Positions 15,374-31,782 of a stretch of 32,000 bases of DNA are shown piece after piece (the stretch's first letter is position 1; the number at the start of each line of letters is the position of its first letter). The position numbers and the translations under genes are program-made. The notes below the pieces were generated by a model. The model had not been told where the DNA came from and ran no database searches. It saw only the letters and a program-made list of their open reading frames with translations. The stretch is from an uncultured Muribaculaceae bacterium (GTDB lineage Bacteria > Pseudomonadota > Alphaproteobacteria > Rs-D84): assembly GCA_965231035.1 (NCBI GenBank), contig OZ246409.1, positions 331,101 through 363,100 on the forward strand, written 5' to 3'.

Positions 15374-15883
15374 TTATTCAACCCAAATGGTTGCATAAGT
15401 TGTTGCTGTTTCAGAGCCTATTGGAATTTTCACATTAGATTTTGTAACATTCAATGTATCTGTTCCGACAGATACATCAGAAATAACGTAACCAGTTCCA
15501 GACGTTGTAACACTGGCCAAACCAGATTCACCCGCAGGACCTTGAATTCCCTGGGGACCTTGGGGACCAATTTCGCCTTGGGGACCCTGTGCACCAGTTT
15601 CACCTTGGGGACCTTGGATACCTTGAATTCCCTGGGAACCTTGGGGACCAGTTTCACCCTGAGGACCCTGTGCACCAGTATCTCCGGTATCACCTTTTGG
15701 ACCCTGAGGACCAGTTTCACCCTGAGGACCTTGAGGTCCAGGAATCAGAGTTACTCCTTCTACAACCCTATCAACATAGGTTTTACTTGCAATATTACCC
15801 GAAGCATAGCCAACAGTGGTTACTATAATTATAGCAACAAGAGAAACCGAAAAAATGCAATTTTTTTTCGTCATATCAACCAT
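15374..15883 (-). CDS. Collagen-like triple-helix repeat protein (169 aa), signal peptide or signal anchor
   Basis: An N-terminal hydrophobic segment and the IASKTYVD motif are followed by 24 uninterrupted G-X-Y triplets ([19 protein letters not shown]...[13 protein letters not shown] 15521-15739) and a ~48-aa C-terminal domain ending TYATIWVE. Confidence 0.85.
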
Positions 15884-15933
15884 ACTGAGGATAAATTTAA
15901 AACACTCTTACACGAAATCATAATATTTTTATT

Positions 15934-15961
15934 TGTGTGAAAAAAGAGTTTTTTTCACACA
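15934..15961. other. Strong intergenic stem-loop between fibre genes
   Basis: tgtgtgaaaaaa / ttttttcacaca forms a 12-13-bp perfect stem with a 3-4-nt loop. Confidence 0.5.
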
Positions 15962-15973
15962 AAACAAAAAATA

Positions 15974-16831
15974 TTATCTTTCTACAACTTCCCAAGTATA
16001 TGCTGTTCCATCAAAAGTCAGAACACACTTGCTGGTTGGATTGGAACATGCACCCGGTGCAGCTGTCGCCAATGTACCCAGACTTGCTGTATCAGCTTTT
16101 AATCCCAATGCTGTATTAATAGCTGTTGATGTCATAGCATCAGTGATACCATATCCAGACAATGTTGTTGCTTTATCAGCTTTTGTTCCCAACGATGTAT
16201 CAACTTCTGTTTTTGTATAAGTTGTTGCCTGATCAGCTTTTGCTGCTAAGGCTGTATTAACATCAGCTGTATTTGCTTTTGCTGCTAATGCTGTGTTTAC
16301 ATCGGCTGTATTCGCCTTGGTTGCCAAAGAAGTGTCAACTTCTGTCTTGGTATATGTTGTTGCCTTATCAGCCTTGGCATCTAATGCAGTATTAACAGTT
16401 GCGGTTTGTGCATAACCAGTCAAGTCAGCAGATTGCAATGCTGTATCAGCCTTGCCCAAAGAAGTTTGAACATCTGTTGCCAACTTTGGTTTCGTTACAT
16501 TACCATCTACGATATCAGCAGTTCCAACAGTACTTTTTGTTGCCAATGCACCCAAACTTGCTGTATCAGCCTTTGCACCCAATGCTGTATCAACTTCAGT
16601 CTTGGTATATGTTGTGGCTTGATTTGCTTTAGCTGCTAAAGATGTATCAACTTCACTTTTTGTATAAGTTGTTGCCTGATCAGCTTTTGCTGCTATTGCA
16701 GTATTAATTGTTGTTGTTTGCGATGTATTTTGAGCATCAACATAGTTCTTACTGGCGATTTCAGCATTCGCTGCGCTTGCAAAACCTGCTGCAACTAAGA
16801 TAGCAAACAGACTAGTGGTTATTTTTTTCAT
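15974..16831 (-). CDS. Secreted tail-fibre-repeat protein (285 aa)
   Basis: Signal peptide MKKITTSLFAILVAAGFASAANA and EIASKNYVD. There are at least 5 copies of TTYTK[ST]EVDT[SA]L, ANTADVNTALAAK repeats, LSGYGITDA, and the C-terminal C-x6-C-VLTF...YTWEVV. A GGAGA RBS precedes it. Confidence 0.8.
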   Translation of the reverse strand: MKKITTSLFAILVAAGFASAANAEIASKNYVDAQNTSQTTTINTAIAAKADQATTYTKSEVDTSLAAKANQATTYTKTEVDTALGAKADTASLGALATKSTVGTADIVDGNVTKPKLATDVQTSLGKADTALQSADLTGYAQTATVNTALDAKADKATTYTKTEVDTSLATKANTADVNTALAAKANTADVNTALAAKADQATTYTKTEVDTSLGTKADKATTLSGYGITDAMTSTAINTALGLKADTASLGTLATAAPGACSNPTSKCVLTFDGTAYTWEVVER

Positions 16832-16869
16832 ATTTTTATCTCCTTAATTATATCTTGTATGTTTAAACT

Positions 16870-17772
16870 TTATTGAACTGCAACATCTTCCCAATAAACC
16901 GTTCCTGTTGTTTTATTTATGCTTAACACGCATTGTGCTTGTGCGCCTAAACAGTTTGCAGATGGTTTTGGAACAGAATATGTTTCAACAGCATTTACAG
17001 TTGTATACTTGGTTGTGCTGCCAGTATCTGTTGCGATGTTGTTTGATTTATTAGCAACATCTTCTTTTCCAGACAGGTCTGTATTAATACCTGTTACTAC
17101 ACCACCAACATAGCTTTCAACTGCATGTACAGTCGTATACTTACTTGTGCTGCCTGTATCTGTTGTCATGTTATCTGACTTATTTGCAACATCTTCCTTA
17201 GTTGCCAACGCTGTGTTAACATCTGTTGTGTTTGCTTTTGTTGCTAATCCAGTATCAACATATGTTGTATCTGCTTTGGTTGCCAATGCTGTGGTTACAT
17301 CTGTTGTGTTTGCTTTTGTTGCCAATTGACCATCAACATATGTTGTGTCAGCTTTTGTTGCCAAACCTGTGTTAACGTCTGCTGTTTTTGCATAATCTGT
17401 CAAATCAGCTGATTGCAATGCTGTATCTGCTTTGCCCAAAGTTGTTTGAACATCCAATGACAATTTTGGTTTAGTTACACTTGCATCATCAATATCAGTT
17501 GTTGTAACTGTACTTTTTGTTGCCAATGCACCCAAACTTGCTGTATCAGCCTTTGCACCCAATGCTGTATCAACTTCAGTCTTGGTATAAGTATCCGTTT
17601 TATCAGCTTTTAAATTCAATGCCGATGTTGTATTTGTAGAAAGCGTTGCATTTTGAGCATCAACGTATCCTTTACTGGTCAACTGAGTATCTCCAGGAGC
17701 TGCCTGAGCTGTACCAGCGCCAATCAGAATTACTGACATGACACCAAAAAAGACTATTTTTTTGTTTTTCAT
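16870..17772 (-). CDS. Secreted tail-fibre-repeat protein (300 aa)
   Basis: Signal peptide MKNKKIVFFGVMSVILIGAGTAQA and LTSKGYVDAQN. Also TYTKTEVDTALGAKADTASLGALATKSTV, ATKA[DN]TT[YD]V repeats, a duplicated VANKS[DN]N[MI][TA]TDTGST[ST]KYTTV[HN]AVE[ST]Y unit, and the C-terminal C-x6-C-VLSI...VYWEDV. Confidence 0.8.
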   Translation of the reverse strand: MKNKKIVFFGVMSVILIGAGTAQAAPGDTQLTSKGYVDAQNATLSTNTTSALNLKADKTDTYTKTEVDTALGAKADTASLGALATKSTVTTTDIDDASVTKPKLSLDVQTTLGKADTALQSADLTDYAKTADVNTGLATKADTTYVDGQLATKANTTDVTTALATKADTTYVDTGLATKANTTDVNTALATKEDVANKSDNMTTDTGSTSKYTTVHAVESYVGGVVTGINTDLSGKEDVANKSNNIATDTGSTTKYTTVNAVETYSVPKPSANCLGAQAQCVLSINKTTGTVYWEDVAVQ

Positions 17773-17923
17773 TTTTTTCTCCGTTTTTGTTTTTTATCCC
17801 TTTTTTCTTTTTTAAGAAAACAGGTATATTTTCTTGTGATATTCAAAAATTTTTCAACTTATGCTTATCACTACTCCCTTATTTGATTCAGTTGACTAAA
17901 CAACCAAACCTTATCTACACTTT

Positions 17924-19372
17924 TTAATAAGCTACTTTAAACCAATCTGTTTGTCCGTTATTTACAACCATAACATAGTCAGAACCATCCGCAGGTGCGC
18001 CTGTGGTACTTGGAACATCCCCTGGTTGCAAAGCTGTATCCGCCTTGCCCAAAGAAGATTGAACATCTGTTGCCAACTTTGGTTTTGTAACATTGGCATC
18101 ATCGATATCATTTGTTGCAACAGTATTCTTCGCAGCCAAAGCACCCAAGCTGGCTGTATCTGCTTTTGTCGACAAAGAAGTATTTACTTCTGTTTTTGTT
18201 GCATAGTTGGACATATCGGCCGATTGCAATGCTGTATCTGCTTTATCCAGAGAAGATTGGACATCCGTCGATAATTTTGGTTTAGTAACATTCGCGTCAT
18301 CAATATCTGTTGTTGCTACTGTATTCTTTGCAGCCAAAGCACCTAAACTCGCTGTGTCTGCCTTGGTTGATAAATCTGTTTTTGTAGCATAATTAACTAA
18401 ATCCGCTGGTTGAACTGCTGTATCTGCTTTGGCCCCTTGGACAGATGTTGCATAATTAGCAGCAGCAGCATTTATCGCAGCAATAATTGCTGAATTCATT
18501 TCCAGTGTTGTTGAATATCCTGACAAATCAGCACCAGATCCAGGTTCACCCTGTGGACCTTGGGCACCAGTATCACCTTTGTCACCCTTTTCGCCTTGAG
18601 GACCCTGTAATCCTTGTTCACCCTGTGGGCCTTGTAATCCCTGCTCTCCTTGGAGACCTTGTAAACCTTGTTCACCTTGAAGTCCCTGGGCACCATCAGC
18701 ACCTTTTAAATCTTGCAGGGATACCAAGTTAGTCCATGTACTGGATGCATCGTCATACTTCCATTGAATATGCGTTCCGTCTGATTGTAATAATATTTTT
18801 TCGCCGTTTACATTAACTGCGGATATAACACCATTTGCAATTTCAATCCCCGCACCAGCTGTTAAAATATCTTGTTTTGAATCTAATAATGTATCAGTTT
18901 CTGTTTTTGAATACTGATTATCATTAGCATCTTTTATATTATCTACTCTGGTATCTAAAACATCTATTTGATTTTGTAAATCTGTGTTATTACCTGTGCT
19001 GCCATTTGATGTGCTATAGCTGGGATTTTGAGATCTGATAGAGCTGCCACCACCAACATTTTTTCCACCACTTAAATATTTTCCAACAGAAAGTCTTGAA
19101 GAATAATAGCCAGAAGAATTTCTGGCAACACTTGTATCATTGGAATCAGAAGAAGTACTTGTTGAAGAACTGTCTGTATCAGTATTTGAATTTACTCTGA
19201 TAGACGCAGCACGCAAAGAACCCGTACGTGCAGCTGTTGCATCGGAAGCACTGTTATATGTAGTCGCACCACCAAAAGATCTTATGGACGGAGCAGCATG
19301 TACACCACTAAAAGTGGTTGTACAAAAAACGCAAACTATTGATAATAATGATATCTTTACGTTATGTCTCAT
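17924..19372 (-). CDS. Secreted collagen-like plus tail-fibre-repeat protein (482 aa)
   Basis: Signal peptide MRHNVKISLLSIVCVFCTTTFSGVHA and a Ser/Thr/Asn-rich region. HIQWKYDDASSTWTNLVSLQDLKG leads into 19 G-X-Y triplets (DNA 18533-18703), followed by two tandem ~63-aa units containing DTASLGALAAKNTVAT.DIDDANVTKPKL.TDVQSSL.KADTALQ. Confidence 0.85.
   Translation of the reverse strand: MRHNVKISLLSIVCVFCTTTFSGVHAAPSIRSFGGATTYNSASDATAARTGSLRAASIRVNSNTDTDSSSTSTSSDSNDTSVARNSSGYYSSRLSVGKYLSGGKNVGGGSSIRSQNPSYSTSNGSTGNNTDLQNQIDVLDTRVDNIKDANDNQYSKTETDTLLDSKQDILTAGAGIEIANGVISAVNVNGEKILLQSDGTHIQWKYDDASSTWTNLVSLQDLKGADGAQGLQGEQGLQGLQGEQGLQGPQGEQGLQGPQGEKGDKGDTGAQGPQGEPGSGADLSGYSTTLEMNSAIIAAINAAAANYATSVQGAKADTAVQPADLVNYATKTDLSTKADTASLGALAAKNTVATTDIDDANVTKPKLSTDVQSSLDKADTALQSADMSNYATKTEVNTSLSTKADTASLGALAAKNTVATNDIDDANVTKPKLATDVQSSLGKADTALQPGDVPSTTGAPADGSDYVMVVNNGQTDWFKVAY
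18025..18410. repeat. Tandem ~190-nt duplication inside the 482-aa fibre gene
   Basis: Two adjacent near-identical coding units (approximate boundaries 18025-18222 and 18223-18410). The same module occurs once each in the 285-aa and 300-aa genes. Confidence 0.75.
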
Positions 19373-24021: not shown

Positions 24022-24432
24022 TTATTTACACCATCCAAAGCGGTGACCACCATTATATTTTCTTACCAGCTTTTCTTTTATCATAACATCACTGACATTA
24101 ACACCTTTGGATGTTTTAACATTGGCATCAATTCGCCCAAGATATTTATCATCTTTGATATCTGTTAATTCAACAACAGCGCCCAAAGGTAAAAGTTCTG
24201 ACAAGCGTTTCTTGGCAATTTTTGCACCCTGGATTTCCGAATCGCATTTTCCATTAATCTCTGGGGCATCAATATCCAAAATACGAACCCGAACAGATAT
24301 TTTTATGTTATCTTCCAATTTTACCTGGGCCCCAAAAGTATCACCATCAAAGATATAATTCACCGTCGCTGGCACAGCATAAGAAGCAATTGGAAGAAAA
24401 ATACCGGTAAAAATTATAGCTAGTTTCTTCAT
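24022..24432 (-). CDS. Secreted thermonuclease (SNase-like) family protein
   Basis: Signal peptide MKKLAIIFTGIFLPIASYA, then FDGDTF...VRVRILDIDAPE...DKYLGRIDANV, which carries the SNase catalytic motifs. Confidence 0.7.
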   Translation of the reverse strand: MKKLAIIFTGIFLPIASYAVPATVNYIFDGDTFGAQVKLEDNIKISVRVRILDIDAPEINGKCDSEIQGAKIAKKRLSELLPLGAVVELTDIKDDKYLGRIDANVKTSKGVNVSDVMIKEKLVRKYNGGHRFGWCK

Positions 24433-24440
24433 TGAATTAT

Positions 24441-25766
24441 TTACGGTAAACGTGGGGACCAAGTTGGTTCAACCCCGTTTATATTCTTTGGCAATGGAAT
24501 GTCATACAGGTTTTGACCCATTATATCCACACTGCGAATATGACTGACGCGTTCCATATCATCCATTGTTTTTTCTGTTTCATAATAAACTATACGACGA
24601 GACCCAGGTGCCCAGCTGGGGGATTCCATATACCAACCACCTGCCAATATTTTTTCGTTTCGACCGTTTTCATCCATAATACCAACATAAAATGTATCGT
24701 CTGCAATTTTTGTAAATGCAATGAATTGACCATCAGGTGACCAAGCCGGTGTAGCATAACGACCATCACCATAAGTTATTCTTTTTTGAACCCCAGTTTC
24801 CAAATCCAGCATATGTAATTGTTGGCTGCCCGAACGATTCGAGTTAAATGCCATTTTTTTACCATCTGGTGAATAAGCCGGACTGGTATCAATTGATTTG
24901 CCGAATGTCAGCTGACGCAAAGTTTTCTTGGCTATGTCGTATTCATAAATGTTTGTAATACCTTCTTTGACCAGTGACAAAGCAACTTTTGTTCCATCAG
25001 GTGAAAAACGTGGTGCAAATGTCATTCCGCCGAATCGTCCCAAACGCCTTTGGTCGCCAGTATTCATATCCAGTGTCCAAACCATTGGATCATTATCGCG
25101 ATAAGATAAAAATACAACGTTCTGCATGTTCGGCGAAAAGTGTGGAGACATAACAAAAGTCTTGGCATCAGAAACATATCTGAATCCATAACCGTCTTGA
25201 TCCATTATTGCCATACGTTTTACTCTATCGTCGACTGGTCCTGTTTCGGCAATAAATATTATCTGGGTGTCAAAATATCCAACCTCACCCGTTAATCTTT
25301 CATAAATTGCATCAGCCATAATGTGTGCCATACGACGTGCAGCTTTTTTCGAAGAAACCAAACTTTGTGCTTCGATTTGTTCTTTGCCGTTTACATCCCA
25401 AACATAGAAATCTATTTTATAGCGATTATTTTTCTCGGCTACCATTTTAACCTGGACCAGAACCTGGGTTTTTATGGCCATCCAGCTTTGGAAATTTGGT
25501 AATTGATTCATCTTGGCAAATTCTTGGAACGCATCGTGACCGACGATTCGGAACATCCCAGTAGATTTTAAATCCTTTTCCAATACATCACGTACCATTG
25601 CGGCATCTTTGGAATTAACACGACCATCAGTTTCAAAACGCTGAACCGCAATTGAAATTGGATCAACACCACCAGCAATAATATCAACCTTGATTTCGGC
25701 ATTTGCTAATGACACAAAAAAACATCCGCCCAAGACAACAAAAAACTTTAAAAATTTATTAAACAT
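24441..25766 (-). CDS. tolB: Tol-Pal system beta-propeller protein TolB
   Basis: Signal peptide MFNKFLKFFVVLGGCFFVSLANA preceded by an AAGGA RBS, the N-terminal TolB domain (PISIAVQRFE), and repeated P.[FW]SPDG propeller blades. I prefer the start at 25766 over the track start at 25841. Confidence 0.9.
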   Translation of the reverse strand: MFNKFLKFFVVLGGCFFVSLANAEIKVDIIAGGVDPISIAVQRFETDGRVNSKDAAMVRDVLEKDLKSTGMFRIVGHDAFQEFAKMNQLPNFQSWMAIKTQVLVQVKMVAEKNNRYKIDFYVWDVNGKEQIEAQSLVSSKKAARRMAHIMADAIYERLTGEVGYFDTQIIFIAETGPVDDRVKRMAIMDQDGYGFRYVSDAKTFVMSPHFSPNMQNVVFLSYRDNDPMVWTLDMNTGDQRRLGRFGGMTFAPRFSPDGTKVALSLVKEGITNIYEYDIAKKTLRQLTFGKSIDTSPAYSPDGKKMAFNSNRSGSQQLHMLDLETGVQKRITYGDGRYATPAWSPDGQFIAFTKIADDTFYVGIMDENGRNEKILAGGWYMESPSWAPGSRRIVYYETEKTMDDMERVSHIRSVDIMGQNLYDIPLPKNINGVEPTWSPRLP

Positions 25767-25920
25767 AACCCTTATTCCTTTCCACAACATTGTGCATAAA
25801 TTCAGATATTTGATTTTATATAGCTTTGTAAGAAAAAGCAAGGATTGCCGTCATCAAGATTCAAAAAACTAAAACAAATTTCCAAGATTCAAATAAATAA
25901 AATTTAAAATTTTGTCGATA

Positions 25921-26052
25921 TACAAACACCTATACAAATGCCTTTACATCCGTGATTACAAGTGCAATTACAAATGTATTGACATCTGTATTTACAGTGA
26001 TATAGTCAACTGTAATTACACTTGTATTTATAAGTGTATTTATAATTGTATA
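25921..26052. promoter_or_regulatory. Array of 11 tandem 12-bp iterons (consensus TACAAnTGTATT)
   Basis: Strict 12-bp register: tacaaacaccta tacaaatgcctt tacatccgtgat tacaagtgcaat tacaaatgtatt gacatctgtatt tacagtgatata gtcaactgtaat tacacttgtatt tataagtgtatt tataattgtata. Each unit contains the half-palindrome TACA..TGTA. Confidence 0.85.
25979..26006 (+). promoter_or_regulatory. Near-consensus sigma70 promoter embedded in the iteron array
   Basis: TTGACA (25979-25984), a 16-nt spacer, then TATAGT (26001-26006), about 55 nt upstream of the ATG at 26065. Confidence 0.5.
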
Positions 26053-26064
26053 TGGGGGTCTGGT

Positions 26065-26289
26065 ATGCCTAATGTTATGCAACAGTTGTTCGTTATGAAC
26101 ATAGAATCATTGTTAAAAGAATATGCGGCGTATCGTGCTTTTAATAAATCAGATTGTGTTATAAATATGCGAATTCCACGACCAATTCTGGAACATATAA
26201 AAGAACTGGCCGACCAACAACATGTCCCCTATCAATCGCTAATATCATCTGTTCTCTTTTCCTTGGCAAATATAGAAGATAAAAAATAA
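26065..26289 (+). CDS. BrnA/CopG-like ribbon-helix-helix DNA-binding protein (74 aa), orphan antitoxin-like
   Basis: INMRIPRPILEHIKELADQQHVPYQSLISSVLFSLA matches the BrnA-type pattern (I.[LM]R[LI]P..LL..[IL]K..A....[VI]PYQSLI). A GGGGG RBS lies 6-7 nt upstream of the ATG. The track's longer ORF from 25912 is not preferred. Confidence 0.7.
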   Translation: MPNVMQQLFVMNIESLLKEYAAYRAFNKSDCVINMRIPRPILEHIKELADQQHVPYQSLISSVLFSLANIEDKK

Positions 26290-26321
26290 AAACTGTATAA
26301 TGTAGAAACTAAAATATATTA

Positions 26322-26345
26322 AAAAACTCCCAAACGGGAGTTTTT
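26322..26345. terminator. Bidirectional terminator hairpin between the RHH gene and the methyltransferase gene
   Basis: aaaaactccc / aaac / gggagttttt, flanked by A-runs and T-runs. Confidence 0.65.
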
Positions 26346-26901
26346 ATTTTTGTTTATAAATATATAACCAATGTTGAATTCTGCCATCGTGATAAATTTT
26401 AACTTTATTTGTTGGTTTAATATTTGGCAAAGGAAAATCAACAGAAAATAACGTCTTAAATCTGGACAAATATTTTTCAACATTTCGCATTTCTGGTGTT
26501 AATAAGTAAGATATTCCAATATCAAAGTTTTTACCTGTTTTATCCAAATACTTGAAAGCATCTCCAAAAACAATTTTTATATTCTTTAAAAATTTTGTGT
26601 TAATTAATGATTTCAGATATGGCGTTGGCATCATTTCTATTCCAGTTATACTTGCATTTGGGAACTGTTTTGCCACAGCACAAACCATATTACCCCAGCC
26701 ACTACCTATATCTAATACCGTTTTTACATCTGGAAAGTCTTTTTTTATTTGTGCCACTACTGCTGCTGTCTTTTTTTTACCAGCAGAAACGGCTGGTGCT
26801 CTTCTTGTAGCAACAGTTATAACTTGTTCAATCCCCATCAGAAAAAGGGTTACTGAAACTGTAATAAACAGAAAAATATAAAGGTAAACCAAAAAAAACA
26901 T
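26344..26901 (-). CDS. Class I SAM-dependent methyltransferase with an N-terminal TM anchor
   Basis: VLDIGSGWGNM (motif I), ITGIEM (motif II), and the hydrophobic N-terminus MFFLVYLYIFLFITVSVTLFLMG. Confidence 0.6.
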   Translation of the reverse strand: MFFLVYLYIFLFITVSVTLFLMGIEQVITVATRRAPAVSAGKKKTAAVVAQIKKDFPDVKTVLDIGSGWGNMVCAVAKQFPNASITGIEMMPTPYLKSLINTKFLKNIKIVFGDAFKYLDKTGKNFDIGISYLLTPEMRNVEKYLSRFKTLFSVDFPLPNIKPTNKVKIYHDGRIQHWLYIYKQK

Positions 26902-27403: not shown

Positions 27404-28351
27404 ATGAAATTTTCAGATTTTGGGCTGGTGAACTCGAAAAATATGTTTGTGGACGCGATGAAACGCAAGTTTGCAGTACCTGCTTTTAATTTTTACAATA
27501 TGGAAACTCTGAAATCCATTATTGCCGCCGCCGATGAATGCCACAGTCCTGTTATTTTGGGCGTGTCCGAATCCGCCCTTAAATATATGGATGATGATTT
27601 GTTGATGGGTATGATTTACGGTTTAAAGTTAAAATCAAAAAACATCGTTTTGCACCTGGATCACGGACACAGTTTTGAATCTTGCAAACATGCAATTGAT
27701 ATCGGATTTTCCAGCGTGATGTTCGACGGCAGTGAATTGCCCTTTGCCGAAAATGTTAAACAAACCAAACGCGTTGTAAATTATGCAAAAAAGTTTAATG
27801 TATCAGTAGAGGCTGAATTGGGAACATTATCCGGAATCGAAGACGAAAACACAAAATCAGAAAATCACAGTTATACCGATCCCAGGGACGTTATAAAATT
27901 TGTTTCTGAAACAGGATGTGATTCTTTGGCAATTGCAATTGGAACCAGTCATGGTGCATACAAAAGAAAAAGTCCGAATGAAAAACTGCGTTTTGATATT
28001 CTGAAAGAAGTATCTAAGAAACTTTCAAAGTTTCCTTTGGTACTACATGGTGCTTCGACAATCCCGCAAAATTTTGTAAAAAACATAAATAAAAATGGTG
28101 GAAAATTATGTCATCCACTTGGTATCCCAGAGGCCCAGATAAAAAAAGCCGTCAAAATGAATATCTGCAAAGTTAATGTGGACAGTGACGCCCGTTTGGC
28201 TTTTACCGCCGCAGTTCGTGAAAGTTTAAATAAAAATCCAGAAAACTTTGACCCCAGAAAATATCTGACCACCGCCATGGAAAATATGAAAAAGATTTAT
28301 ATTCATGAAATTAAAAATGTTATGAATTCTGAAAATAAATCAAAAAAATAA
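27404..28351 (+). CDS. fba: Class II fructose-1,6-bisphosphate aldolase
   Basis: FAVPAFNFYNMETL, HLDHG, EAELG, TSHGAYK and LVLHGAS. An extended -10 (TGATATAAT at 27369-27377) and a GGGAGA RBS lie upstream. Confidence 0.9.
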   Translation: MKFSDFGLVNSKNMFVDAMKRKFAVPAFNFYNMETLKSIIAAADECHSPVILGVSESALKYMDDDLLMGMIYGLKLKSKNIVLHLDHGHSFESCKHAIDIGFSSVMFDGSELPFAENVKQTKRVVNYAKKFNVSVEAELGTLSGIEDENTKSENHSYTDPRDVIKFVSETGCDSLAIAIGTSHGAYKRKSPNEKLRFDILKEVSKKLSKFPLVLHGASTIPQNFVKNINKNGGKLCHPLGIPEAQIKKAVKMNICKVNVDSDARLAFTAAVRESLNKNPENFDPRKYLTTAMENMKKIYIHEIKNVMNSENKSKK

Positions 28352-29752: not shown

Positions 29753-30871
29753 TTACATTTTCAAAGGCATCAAGATGAATAACGAATCCGTCTTTTTGTC
29801 TGTTGATTTAATAATTGTTGGTGACATAGAATCCTGCATTTCCATTTGGAATTTATCACCTTCGATTTGACCAGCAATATCCAACAAGAATTTAACACTG
29901 AATAAAATTGTGAATGAATTATCACCATTGTATTCGATATCCAGTTCTTGGGTTGCAGTTCCGGCCTCGGCGCTGGATGCATTGATAACCAGTTTGTTCA
30001 TTGAAAAACTTAACTGAACCGATTTTGTTTTATCAACGCTGGCAACAGAAACCAAGTCAACTGCGGAAATAAATTGTTTTCTGTCAAATATTGCAATTTT
30101 GTCATTGCCCTTTGGAATAACAACACGATAGTTTGGATACTGTGCGTCAACCAATTTGCTTGTCAAGATTGCAGTACCTACTGTAAATCTGGCCTTGGTA
30201 TCTGACAATTCAACATGAACGTCGTCAACGGTTGCATCTTCTAATAATTTTGACAATTCACCAATAACGCGGCGTGGCAAAATAACAGATGGCATTTCCA
30301 AACTTCCCGATGGAGCTGACATATGACACAAAGCCATACGCTGTGCGTCTGTTGCAACAGCAGTCAGCATTTTTGCTTTGCCTTCTTCAGCAATGTGGAA
30401 ATAGATACCACCCAAATGATAACGAACATCATCAACAGGGATTGCAAACTTTGTTGTATTAATCAAATTTGCCAAATCACCAGTTGTCATTTGGAATTTT
30501 GTTGTCAGGTTGCTGCCTGCCATTGCTGGGAAATTTTCAGCTGGCAAAGTTGGCAAACGGAAAACTGCACGACCACTGGAAACAACCAATTGGTCACCAG
30601 ATTGTTTAAAATTGATTTCTGCATCATCAGGCAACTTACGAACGATATCGTACAGCATCTGAACTGGAACTGTGATTTTACCAGGCAAAGTGATATCGGC
30701 TGTGACGTGTTCAACCAATTCCAAATCTACGTTGGTTGCGGACAGAATCATATCATCTGCAACTTCGATTTTTACGTTCATCAAAATAGGCAAAGTTGCA
30801 CGCTTTTCAACAATAGATTGCATATGTCCCAAAGCACGTATCAAAACCTGGCGAAATACTGAAAATTCCAT
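29753..30871 (-). CDS. dnaN: DNA polymerase III beta sliding clamp
   Basis: 372 aa. MEFSVFRQVLIRALGHMQSIVEKRATLPILMNVKIEV... fits the three-domain clamp pattern, and the C-terminus is ...SLFILMPLKM. Confidence 0.9.
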   Translation of the reverse strand: MEFSVFRQVLIRALGHMQSIVEKRATLPILMNVKIEVADDMILSATNVDLELVEHVTADITLPGKITVPVQMLYDIVRKLPDDAEINFKQSGDQLVVSSGRAVFRLPTLPAENFPAMAGSNLTTKFQMTTGDLANLINTTKFAIPVDDVRYHLGGIYFHIAEEGKAKMLTAVATDAQRMALCHMSAPSGSLEMPSVILPRRVIGELSKLLEDATVDDVHVELSDTKARFTVGTAILTSKLVDAQYPNYRVVIPKGNDKIAIFDRKQFISAVDLVSVASVDKTKSVQLSFSMNKLVINASSAEAGTATQELDIEYNGDNSFTILFSVKFLLDIAGQIEGDKFQMEMQDSMSPTIIKSTDKKTDSLFILMPLKM

Positions 30872-30979
30872 TTCTTGCTCCTGTTAATCAAATAAATTCA
30901 TTTCATCAGCCAGATTTTAGCAAAAAATGCCGATTCGGAGCAAGGGTAAAAACAAGCCCTTTTTTGGCACTTTACAATC

Positions 30980-31011
30980 ATATAAAAAATAAATCCGCCC
31001 TGTTTGGGCGG
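30980..31011 (-). terminator. Terminator hairpin after cdaA
   Basis: ccgccc / tgttt / gggcgg followed on the minus strand by a U-rich tract. Confidence 0.55.
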
Positions 31012-31014
31012 TTT

Positions 31015-31782
31015 TTATTTTTTCATTAATCTTTCAATTTTTGATTTCAACTTTTTTAAATCGTCATATTTTTTTATTGCACCATGCTCGGCAATTGAAA
31101 TGTCACCTGTTTCTTCGGATACAACCAGCGCAACGGACTTTGACACCTCTGAAATTCCTATTGCTGCCCGGTGCCTGGTTCCGTATTTCCACTTTAACTC
31201 ATCTTTGGACAAAGGTAAAATTGCACCTGCGGATAAAATCTTATTATTTTCTACGATAACAGCACCATCATGCAGTGGCGTTTTATTAAAAAATATTGTC
31301 AGTAACAATTCGCTTGAAATTTCAGCATCCATAATTGTTCCTTTTTTTTCTATGGCTGCTTCATCCAATTCGTTTTGAAAGACAATCAATGCACCTGTTC
31401 TTTTAATAGACATATATTCCACAGCACTTACTATACTGTCTACAGATTTAGAAATTTTATCTTTGTCTGCATGGTTGGCACGTAAAGATATTGAATTAAA
31501 TACCCCACGAAAATTTCCCATCATCGCCAAAAGTTTTCTTAATTCTGGCTGGAAAATAACTATTAAACTTAAAGAAAGGAACAATGATGTCCAACGCAAA
31601 AAACCTCCTAGTAAAGTTAAATGTAAACGATTAAACACAAAACTGGCAATCCAAAGTGCCCCCAGACCAAATAAACCGTGTATTAATTTTTCCGAGGATG
31701 TATTTTTTATGAAAAGTCTGTAGAAAAACAAAAGTATTAACACAATAACAACCAGTTGAACAAGAATAACCCAATTAAACAA
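31015..31782 (-). CDS. cdaA: Membrane-bound diadenylate cyclase (CdaA/DisA_N family)
   Basis: N-terminal TM helices, then TGALIVFQ, PLHDGAVIV and GTRHRAAIGISEVSKSVALVVSEETGDIS (DAC domain motifs). Confidence 0.85.
   Translation of the reverse strand: MFNWVILVQLVVIVLILLFFYRLFIKNTSSEKLIHGLFGLGALWIASFVFNRLHLTLLGGFLRWTSLFLSLSLIVIFQPELRKLLAMMGNFRGVFNSISLRANHADKDKISKSVDSIVSAVEYMSIKRTGALIVFQNELDEAAIEKKGTIMDAEISSELLLTIFFNKTPLHDGAVIVENNKILSAGAILPLSKDELKWKYGTRHRAAIGISEVSKSVALVVSEETGDISIAEHGAIKKYDDLKKLKSKIERLMKK

Follow-up and report, generated by a model that had tools for sequence, protein, structure and literature searches.

A promoter-embedded array of 12-bp repeats as a candidate autorepression operator of a BrnA/CopG-antitoxin family gene in Candidatus Enterousia

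The locus and its ribbon-helix-helix protein

The 32,000-bp stretch of contig OZ246409.1 studied here, referred to below as the window, comes from Candidatus Enterousia, an alphaproteobacterium of the gut whose genome measures approximately 0.9 Mb. At positions 25916–26059 it carries an array of twelve 12-bp units enclosing the promoter of a gene for a 74-aa ribbon-helix-helix (RHH) protein; the divergent neighbor of this gene is tolB. The array, the promoter and the gene are arranged as follows, with the basis of each assignment in brackets.

25916–26059, plus strand: whole array, twelve 12-bp units (identity at a lag of 12 and cross-species register)
25916–25975, plus strand: five upstream units, −5 to −1: CGATATACAAAC, ACCTATACAAAT, GCCTTTACATCC, GTGATTACAAGT, GCAATTACAAAT (conservation in 79 loci)
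25976–26011, plus strand: three promoter units, 0 to +2: GTATTGACATCT, GTATTTACAGTG, ATATAGTCAACT (about 2 bits at most positions)
25979–25984, plus strand: −35 hexamer TTGACA (promoter scan; kept in 80 of 80 sequences, i.e. the window and 79 relatives)
25998–26006, plus strand: extended −10 box TGATATAGT (TGn + TATAGT), 16 nt after the −35 box (promoter scan and conservation)
26012–26059, plus strand: four transcribed units, +3 to +6: GTAATTACACTT, GTATTTATAAGT, GTATTTATAATT, GTATATGGGGGT (GTA half conserved)
26065–26289, plus strand: gene for the 74-aa RHH protein of the CopG-antitoxin/BrnA family (PF12441, strand residues and secondary structure)

The first-pass annotation had placed TTGACA-16 nt-TATAGT inside the array. 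This promoter is confirmed at 25979–26006, and a TG extension can be added to it. The resulting TTGACA-16-TGnTATAGT (TATAGT at 26001–26006) is a near-consensus σ70 promoter matching at 11 of 12 positions and is predicted to be very strong, with transcription probably starting near 26012–26014. The Shine-Dalgarno site GGGGG is located at 26054–26058, 6 nt ahead of the ATG at 26065, and is carried by the final array unit. The array hence extends from about 60 bp upstream of the −35 box through to the Shine-Dalgarno site. Unit −1, directly before the −35 unit, is AT-rich.

The 74-aa protein matches Pfam family PF12441 (CopG_antitoxin) with 38.1 bits (cut-off 28, E-value 2.7e-9) at profile positions 37–76 of 79, while the first ~36 positions of the profile are absent from it. 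Its original assignment to the BrnA/CopG-antitoxin RHH family is upheld by this above-cut-off score, and PF12441 is present in all 120 homologues among the matches listed. The score against the NCBIfam BrnA equivalog NF047399 is 20.1 bits, below the cut-off of 60, so that the protein is a divergent family member, not a BrnA equivalog. The match to Pfam Arc is weak (E-value 0.048), and no relative with a solved structure was found by sequence. The protein is predicted to consist of an N-terminal helix, a strand V32-I-N34-M-R36-I-P and two helices; V32, N34, M35 and R36 are invariant across all lineages compared, including homologues that lack the array. The AlphaFold2 (AF2) monomer is of low confidence (predicted local distance difference test, pLDDT, 59). 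It has helices at residues 4–24, 39–52 and 56–73 and leaves residues 25–38 unstructured where the dimer strand is expected.

In a scan of one genome per species, at least 277 genomes were found to encode a relative of the RHH protein, and the best 80 of these 277 were used for the comparison of loci. These metagenome-assembled genomes were recovered from the guts of animals and humans, and most are labelled Candidatus Enterousia, Alphaproteobacteria or Rickettsiales. The uncultured gut bacteria of Enterousia (order Rs-D84) have genomes of 0.75–1.0 Mb without a tricarboxylic acid cycle or respiratory chain (PMC12306168). The setting of the gene is core-chromosomal and syntenic (tolB, fba, efp, dnaN), with contigs of up to 0.97 Mb, and tolB is the divergent neighbor in 77 of 77 loci. 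Across these species the RHH protein is 86–96% identical to the window copy; in the same relatives the identity is 70–85% for TolB and 56–78% for fructose-bisphosphate aldolase (gene at 27404–28351).

The protein family is tiny: 16 cluster representatives at E ≤ 1e-3, mostly fragments, were found among 1.84 billion proteins. A search of the protein database with a trimmed 47%-identical homologue gave no matches, and a metagenome scan with this homologue yielded only canonical toxin-linked PF12441 relatives, which served as an outgroup. In these canonical relatives (metagenomes; L086–L088) a toxin open reading frame (ORF) lies directly upstream, and they share the N-x-R strand and the V-P-Y-Q-x-L-I helix with the 74-aa protein. 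No BrnT-like toxin ORF adjoins the gene in the window, in agreement with the first-pass annotation, since the array and the divergent tolB lie upstream of it and a terminator and a convergent methyltransferase gene lie downstream. The 74-aa protein thus appears to be a toxin-less offshoot of the BrnA/CopG-antitoxin family.

Phasing of the array and its conservation across species

Identity at a lag of 12 nucleotides equals 0.60 over 25916–26061, compared with 0.285 ± 0.037 in shuffled sequences (none of 10000 shuffles was as high), and this is the top lag-12 signal anywhere in the window. The pattern (ACAN3GTA)x3 with at most two mismatches has ten matches in the window, every one of them within the array, at an expectation of 0. 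At least four of five ACA triplets at 12-bp spacing likewise occur in the array only (expectation 0.02). The single-unit consensus with two mismatches has 32 matches in the window against 28.6 expected, i.e. there is no window-wide enrichment. The signal of the array is therefore phased clustering, not the frequency of single units. Chance could account for the two TACANNTGTA sites that stand alone at 1719 and 16996, and they were rejected as extra array sites. No second copy of the array was found in the window or in ~480 kb of the 80 related loci, except for the reverse-strand image of the same array.

The initial parse of 25921–26052 into eleven 12-bp units was reproduced exactly. In this TACA register, units 1–6 are TACAAACACCTA, TACAAATGCCTT, TACATCCGTGAT, TACAAGTGCAAT, TACAAATGTATT and GACATCTGTATT, and units 7–11 are TACAGTGATATA, GTCAACTGTAAT, TACACTTGTATT, TATAAGTGTATT and TATAATTGTATA. 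Cross-species alignment then shifted the register to G-T/C-A/C-n-n-T/C-A-C-A-n-n-n, which gives the twelve units at 25916–26059; the two parses describe the same array six bases out of phase. The six promoter-distal units had been considered the best conserved, which did not hold at either level. Within the window the consensus is matched best by units 5, 6 and 9–11, and across species the promoter units and the ACA triplets lead.

For the cross-species comparison, the loci of the window and of 79 relatives with enough upstream sequence were anchored on the −35 hexamer. The array, for which a check in close relatives had been suggested, is found in the same register in 79 of 79 related loci, and its loss from close relatives that keep the gene was not observed. 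Five units precede the −35 unit, and conservation falls to background exactly at unit −6, which makes a sharp distal edge. In the upstream units of the 79 loci, A is found at position 7 in 99%, C at position 8 in 81%, A at position 9 in 89% and G at position 1 in 65% of cases; mainly the (T/C)ACA half is kept, and the top strand in relatives consists of 39% A, 37% C, 14% T and 9% G. Promoter units 0 to +2 are almost invariant. The downstream units number two to four in relatives, with GTA kept at positions 1–3 and ACA decaying; the last of them, with the Shine-Dalgarno site, is GTATAGGAG. The array can therefore be described as two overlapping series, ACA in units −5 to +1 and GTA in units −2 to +5, and the full palindrome TACAnnTGTA occurs only in the central units −2 to +1, over the −35 box and the spacer.

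TTGACA and the ATG are separated by 60–61, 71–75 or 86 nt, three classes one unit apart, and hence the number of units changes by whole units (~12-bp steps). The window belongs to the 86-nt class, with one unit more than most relatives. The free variation between conserved positions marks selection on binding positions and not recent slippage. This pattern of conservation shows that selection in about 80 species maintains the ACA and GTA positions, the register, the upstream length of five units and the promoter.

Two simpler explanations of the repeats, namely that they are translated as an N-terminal Y-K-C-I extension of the protein from TTG 25912 or that they are a functionless slippage repeat, have a negligible probability in our estimation. 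The frame is indeed open from 25912 in the window, and one database protein (P0130) is called with such an extension; the open frame is uninformative, however, because the consensus unit is stop-free in all three frames. In 74 of 80 loci a stop codon interrupts the frame after the array start and before the ATG, and the spacing of array and ATG is not constant modulo 3. These two observations refute the YKC-repeat extension from 25912 that the first-pass annotation had considered. The invariant promoter and the Shine-Dalgarno site inside or after the repeats also speak against translation, and neutral slippage is excluded by the position-specific conservation over ~80 species.

A 6–7-bp dyad, GACCGC-GGTATT-GCGGTC, is present at units +3/+4 in a subclade (e.g. 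L009, L027, L036, L038, L034). It has a compensatory variant, GACCAC...GTGGTC, and may correspond to a local hairpin in the mRNA or to an additional dyad of the operator. As a general hairpin of the 5′ untranslated region it was rejected: RNAalifold gave no consensus structure for 44 sequences, and explicit pair counting yielded 54.5% paired cells, near the shuffled level, so that it is a subclade feature only. Known RNA families gave nothing near the gathering score at 25700–26400. A scan of IMG/VR with TACAnnTGTAnn x2.5 produced 37 matches, mostly perfect coding 12-nt repeats (e.g. T-P-V-P), and was uninformative. Several IMG/VR viral contigs (L093, L106, L110/L116/L124, L122) carry imperfect, apparently non-coding TACAnnTGTAnn-like 12-mer arrays.

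Probable autorepression and the alternatives

We consider it probable that the array is a multi-unit operator around the promoter, to which the 74-aa RHH protein binds, repressing its own transcription. RHH dimers would read the half-site (T)ACA / TGT(A) via the invariant Asn34 and Arg36 of the V-I-N-M-R-I-P strand, nucleate on the central TACAnnTGTA units (−2 to +1) and extend cooperatively outward, one dimer per 12 bp, onto outer units that would each offer one half-site, ACA upstream and GTA downstream. A filament of 11–12 units would block the −35 and −10 boxes as well as the start site and the region of ribosome binding. The 12-bp unit is longer than the helical repeat, so that each dimer would be turned by ~50 degrees relative to its neighbor, and a shallow protein spiral around the DNA may form, as in omega–parS or ParR–parC. 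The net effect would be steep homeostatic negative autoregulation of an otherwise very strong promoter.

Related systems provide precedents for this scheme. BrnA–BrnT complexes bind their own promoter according to a passage of PMC5086665 that cites Heaton 2012. Omega covers 6–10 heptads over the −35 box and represses more than 50-fold at saturation (PMC4627068). ParR occupies promoter-flanking parC repeats, and the repeats bound by ParG are separated by AT-rich spacers (PMC5016525). For a phased array that contains a promoter, the best available analogy is still the one proposed at the outset, with extended cooperative operators of the omega/ParR/ParG type.

Several points weigh against autorepression. 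The link between the protein and the array consists of co-location and co-conservation, and the RHH fold is predicted from sequence with a structural model of low confidence. To our knowledge, none of the RHH systems compared, with spacings of 7, 8, 10 and 11 bp, has exactly the 12-bp spacing seen here. The five upstream units, with their CACA core on a C+A-rich strand, could serve another factor. Finally, homologues with 61–65% identity (P0122/L083 and P0125/L084), found beside tRNA-Thr(UGU) in organisms of higher G+C content, have no array and keep the strand residues; the protein can therefore do without an array, and it may be conserved for another function.

The last two points would be expected if a different protein binds the array, or if the array is an intrinsic structural or UP-like promoter element, and the RHH gene simply happens to be downstream of it, which we regard as unlikely. 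The upstream units do differ from the central palindromic ones in their CACA core and C+A-rich strand, homologues with identical strand residues are array-less, and the AT-rich unit −1 occupies the position of an UP element. On the other hand, an activating element makes no sense across the −10 box, the start site and the Shine-Dalgarno site, all of which are spanned by the array. A curvature element would require helical phasing, which a 12-bp period lacks, and autoregulation is the rule in the family of the RHH protein. Another binder is further disfavored by the fact that the array accompanies the RHH gene into a different genomic context.

This context is the locus of the 47%-identical homologue P0130 (L081, GCA_031549365.1), which is rearranged: the RHH gene diverges from a NUDIX gene and converges on the pair of tolB and a staphylococcal nuclease (SNase) gene. 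The RHH gene of L081 retains TTGACA-N17-TATAGT and six GTATATACA-type units, of which three are at the promoter and the others 20 bp farther upstream. The region upstream of its tolB contains a −35-like TTGCTTTTTT stretch similar to the tolB promoter, but no array. Comparison of these loci shows the array element traveling with the RHH gene. The array is an elaboration of the Enterousia-related lineages.

The tRNA-Thr(UGU) gene beside the array-less homologues is divergent from them (L083:2566–2641, L084:2872–2946). Near these homologues there are also envelope-related genes (Lnt for L083, a weak PagL-like gene for L084), which in combination with tolB hint at an envelope theme around the protein family.

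Control of the divergent tolB promoter by the array, in addition to or instead of the RHH gene, seems improbable to us, although tolB is divergent in all 77 loci and some tolB −35 boxes start a few base pairs from the array edge. In the window tolB has a promoter of its own:

25813–25841, minus strand: separate tolB promoter, TTGCTT at 25841–25836, 17 nt, TAAAAT at 25818–25813 (75 bp outside the array)

The arrangement TTGATT/TTGCTT/TTGCAA-N17-TAAAAT, followed by GGAAAGGA and the tolB start, recurs in most relatives. Measured from the array edge, the tolB −35 box lies 0 to ~250 bp away among them, without conservation of phase, and in L081 the array stays with the RHH gene and is missing upstream of tolB. 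The description of the array as lying in a divergent region shared with tolB was hence misleading. The tolB gene itself is not preceded by tolQRA, and the gene that follows it is staphylococcal-nuclease-like (24022–24462), not pal. The tolB–SNase pair (24022–25766) is kept across the clade, L081 included.

Downstream, the RHH gene of the window is followed by a terminator:

26322–26345, bidirectional: intrinsic terminator with a 10-bp stem and T runs on both sides (terminator scan)

The stem is perfect, and the terminator is common to the RHH gene and the convergent methyltransferase gene (26344–26901), which among relatives is present only in the two closest, L008 and L032. Because the terminator follows the stop codon, the RHH gene is monocistronic in the window. 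The first-pass annotation had called the gene an orphan, which is correct for the subclade of the window and incorrect for 54 of the 80 relatives, where an ORF of 289–321 aa starts 3–45 bp past the RHH stop codon on the same strand (e.g. L050:3244–4197). This gene of ~300 aa has no Pfam family. It matches the PADLOC defence candidate PDC-S13 (6.8e-15), on which no publication was found in the literature, and phrog_8036 (3e-11), and is distantly similar to DNA damage-inducible protein D (DinD; NF008573 at 1e-5, far under the cut-off). The DinD-like gene evolves fast (19–46% identity between species), is absent from the subclade of the window and has been lost repeatedly elsewhere, leaving a 37-aa remnant in L049. 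Its product gives a good AF2 model (pLDDT 82), for which no significant fold match was found in PDB or BFVD, the best being the DNA-binding protein DdrC (E-value 0.38).

The RHH protein could accordingly be the antitoxin or regulator of a two-gene module, with the array as the operator of the module and the DinD-like second gene lost here; the retained RHH gene would then be a remnant or a trans-acting antidote. The closely spaced same-strand gene, its fast evolution, its database matches and its repeated loss are all in line with such a module, which is compatible with autorepression but which we nevertheless hold to be rather doubtful as the explanation of the locus. The RHH gene and the array are unchanged in every lineage without the partner, and hence the RHH protein has a selected function of its own; toxicity of the partner finds no support, and its best fold match (DdrC, E-value 0.38) is not significant. 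Under autorepression, the co-transcribed DinD-like gene of the 54 relatives would also be controlled by the array.

Comparison with other RHH systems and the chromosomal neighborhood

The closest parallels are found on plasmids. Omega of pSM19035 (PcopS, Pdelta, Pomega/parS) is, as here, a small RHH dimer with contiguous short repeats overlapping its own −35 box. It occupies 6–10 units with one dimer per unit, cooperatively and with graded repression, and forms a protein spiral on straight DNA; its heptads occur in direct and inverted orientation, which is comparable to the mixed ACA/GTA pattern of the present array. The omega unit is 7 bp long (WATCACW), whereas the unit here is 12 bp long and has another sequence. 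Omega is plasmid-borne, with several arrays per replicon, the ParA partner delta and a role at the centromere; here a single array is chromosomal, no NTPase was found within ~5 kb, and the RHH family is a different one (PF12441). In ParR–parC of R1 and pSK41, again an RHH protein has about ten tandem repeats flanking or containing the promoter of its own operon. One dimer binds per iteron and the operon is autorepressed, as may be the case here. The repeats of 11 bp (R1) and 10/20 bp (pSK41) compare with 12 bp here, and ParR has a C-terminal ParM-capturing domain with parM adjacent, neither of which was found at the present locus.

This resemblance to parC of R1 and parS of pSM19035, an RHH protein with a long array of twelve phased units in which its own promoter is embedded, is what could suggest a centromere-like or chromosome-organizing site on which the RHH protein forms a ParR- or omega-like segrosome. 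We consider that very unlikely, as nothing beyond the repeat architecture points to partition. In agreement with the first-pass annotation, no toxin, ParA, ParF or ParM gene is located within ~5 kb of the array; no partition NTPase (ParA/ParF/delta, ParM) is encoded among the genes at 20.2–31.8 kb or in the inspected flanks of related loci. The location is in chromosomal synteny and not on a plasmid or mobile replicon, the window and related loci contain one array copy only, and the protein has a short N-terminal helix (24 residues) and essentially no C-terminal tail to engage a motor. A replication origin at the array was rejected as well, since GC skew shows no inflection or switch and no origin feature is seen there. 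A global-repressor module, the other possibility raised at first, has no evidence in support.

With BrnT–BrnA of Brucella abortus (PF12441, PF14384) the 74-aa protein shares the sequence family, a predicted C-terminal RHH and the N-x-R strand. Autoregulation of the BrnA promoter is described in the literature, and may be extended to the present gene by family precedent and the promoter-embedded array. The window differs from a type II toxin–antitoxin locus in that there is no brnT upstream, its position being occupied by the array and the promoter, and the 74-aa protein belongs to an isolated clade encoded by a core gene more conserved than TolB. In the met boxes of MetJ and the operators of Arc, Mnt and CopG, RHH dimers sit on adjacent (pseudo)palindromic units with cooperative neighbors, as they might here, and Arc has a similar Asn/Arg-bearing strand. 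The C...G spacing in ACAnnTGT fits the geometry of the 8-bp met box. These operators have two to five units of 8–11 bp, compared with 11–12 units of 12 bp running through the 5′ untranslated region in the present case.

What is new here is a chromosomal core-genome array with a 12-bp period, 11–12 units and a gradient of half-sites, associated with a domesticated antitoxin-family protein in a minimal genome. Operators of this kind are familiar in principle; what is unusual is how well this one is conserved, how large the putative operator is and in which organism it occurs. At least 277 species genomes retain a toxin-less member of an antitoxin family that is better conserved than a core envelope protein, and the promoter of its gene, nearly perfect, is enclosed by a twelve-unit array. 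If this array is indeed the operator, it adds a chromosomal system with a 12-bp period to the few RHH proteins that read long arrays (omega, ParR, ParG) and would record how a core regulator arose by domestication from an antitoxin. The arrays of the different species form a natural series, with two to four units downstream and outer units that keep only a half-site, which is suitable for studying cooperative filaments on DNA. The array module is accessible to tests in vitro or in E. coli that require no culture of the organism itself.

A more speculative possibility, to which we assign a low probability, is that the former antitoxin is now an essential lineage-wide architectural protein of a minimal genome, whose ParR/omega-like spiral filament on the array acts beyond repression of its own gene. 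Such a filament might be a landmark for chromosome organization or segregation, or else a sink that senses concentration and determines how much of the protein is free to act elsewhere via its highly conserved N-terminal helix. This would explain both the conservation of the RHH protein above that of TolB and its retention after loss of the partner.

Two other regions of the window deserve mention. At 29753–31782 dnaN and a gene for a diadenylate cyclase (DAC domain) are neighbors, and dnaA does not lie between the two. On the minus strand, 15374–19372 contains a cluster of four repeat-rich ORFs with tandem repeats of 9, 27, 39, 78, 81 and 132 nt. Two of these ORFs encode collagen triple-helix repeats (PF01391, 9e-17 and 2e-9). 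The cluster is an unusual cargo for a genome of ~0.9 Mb.

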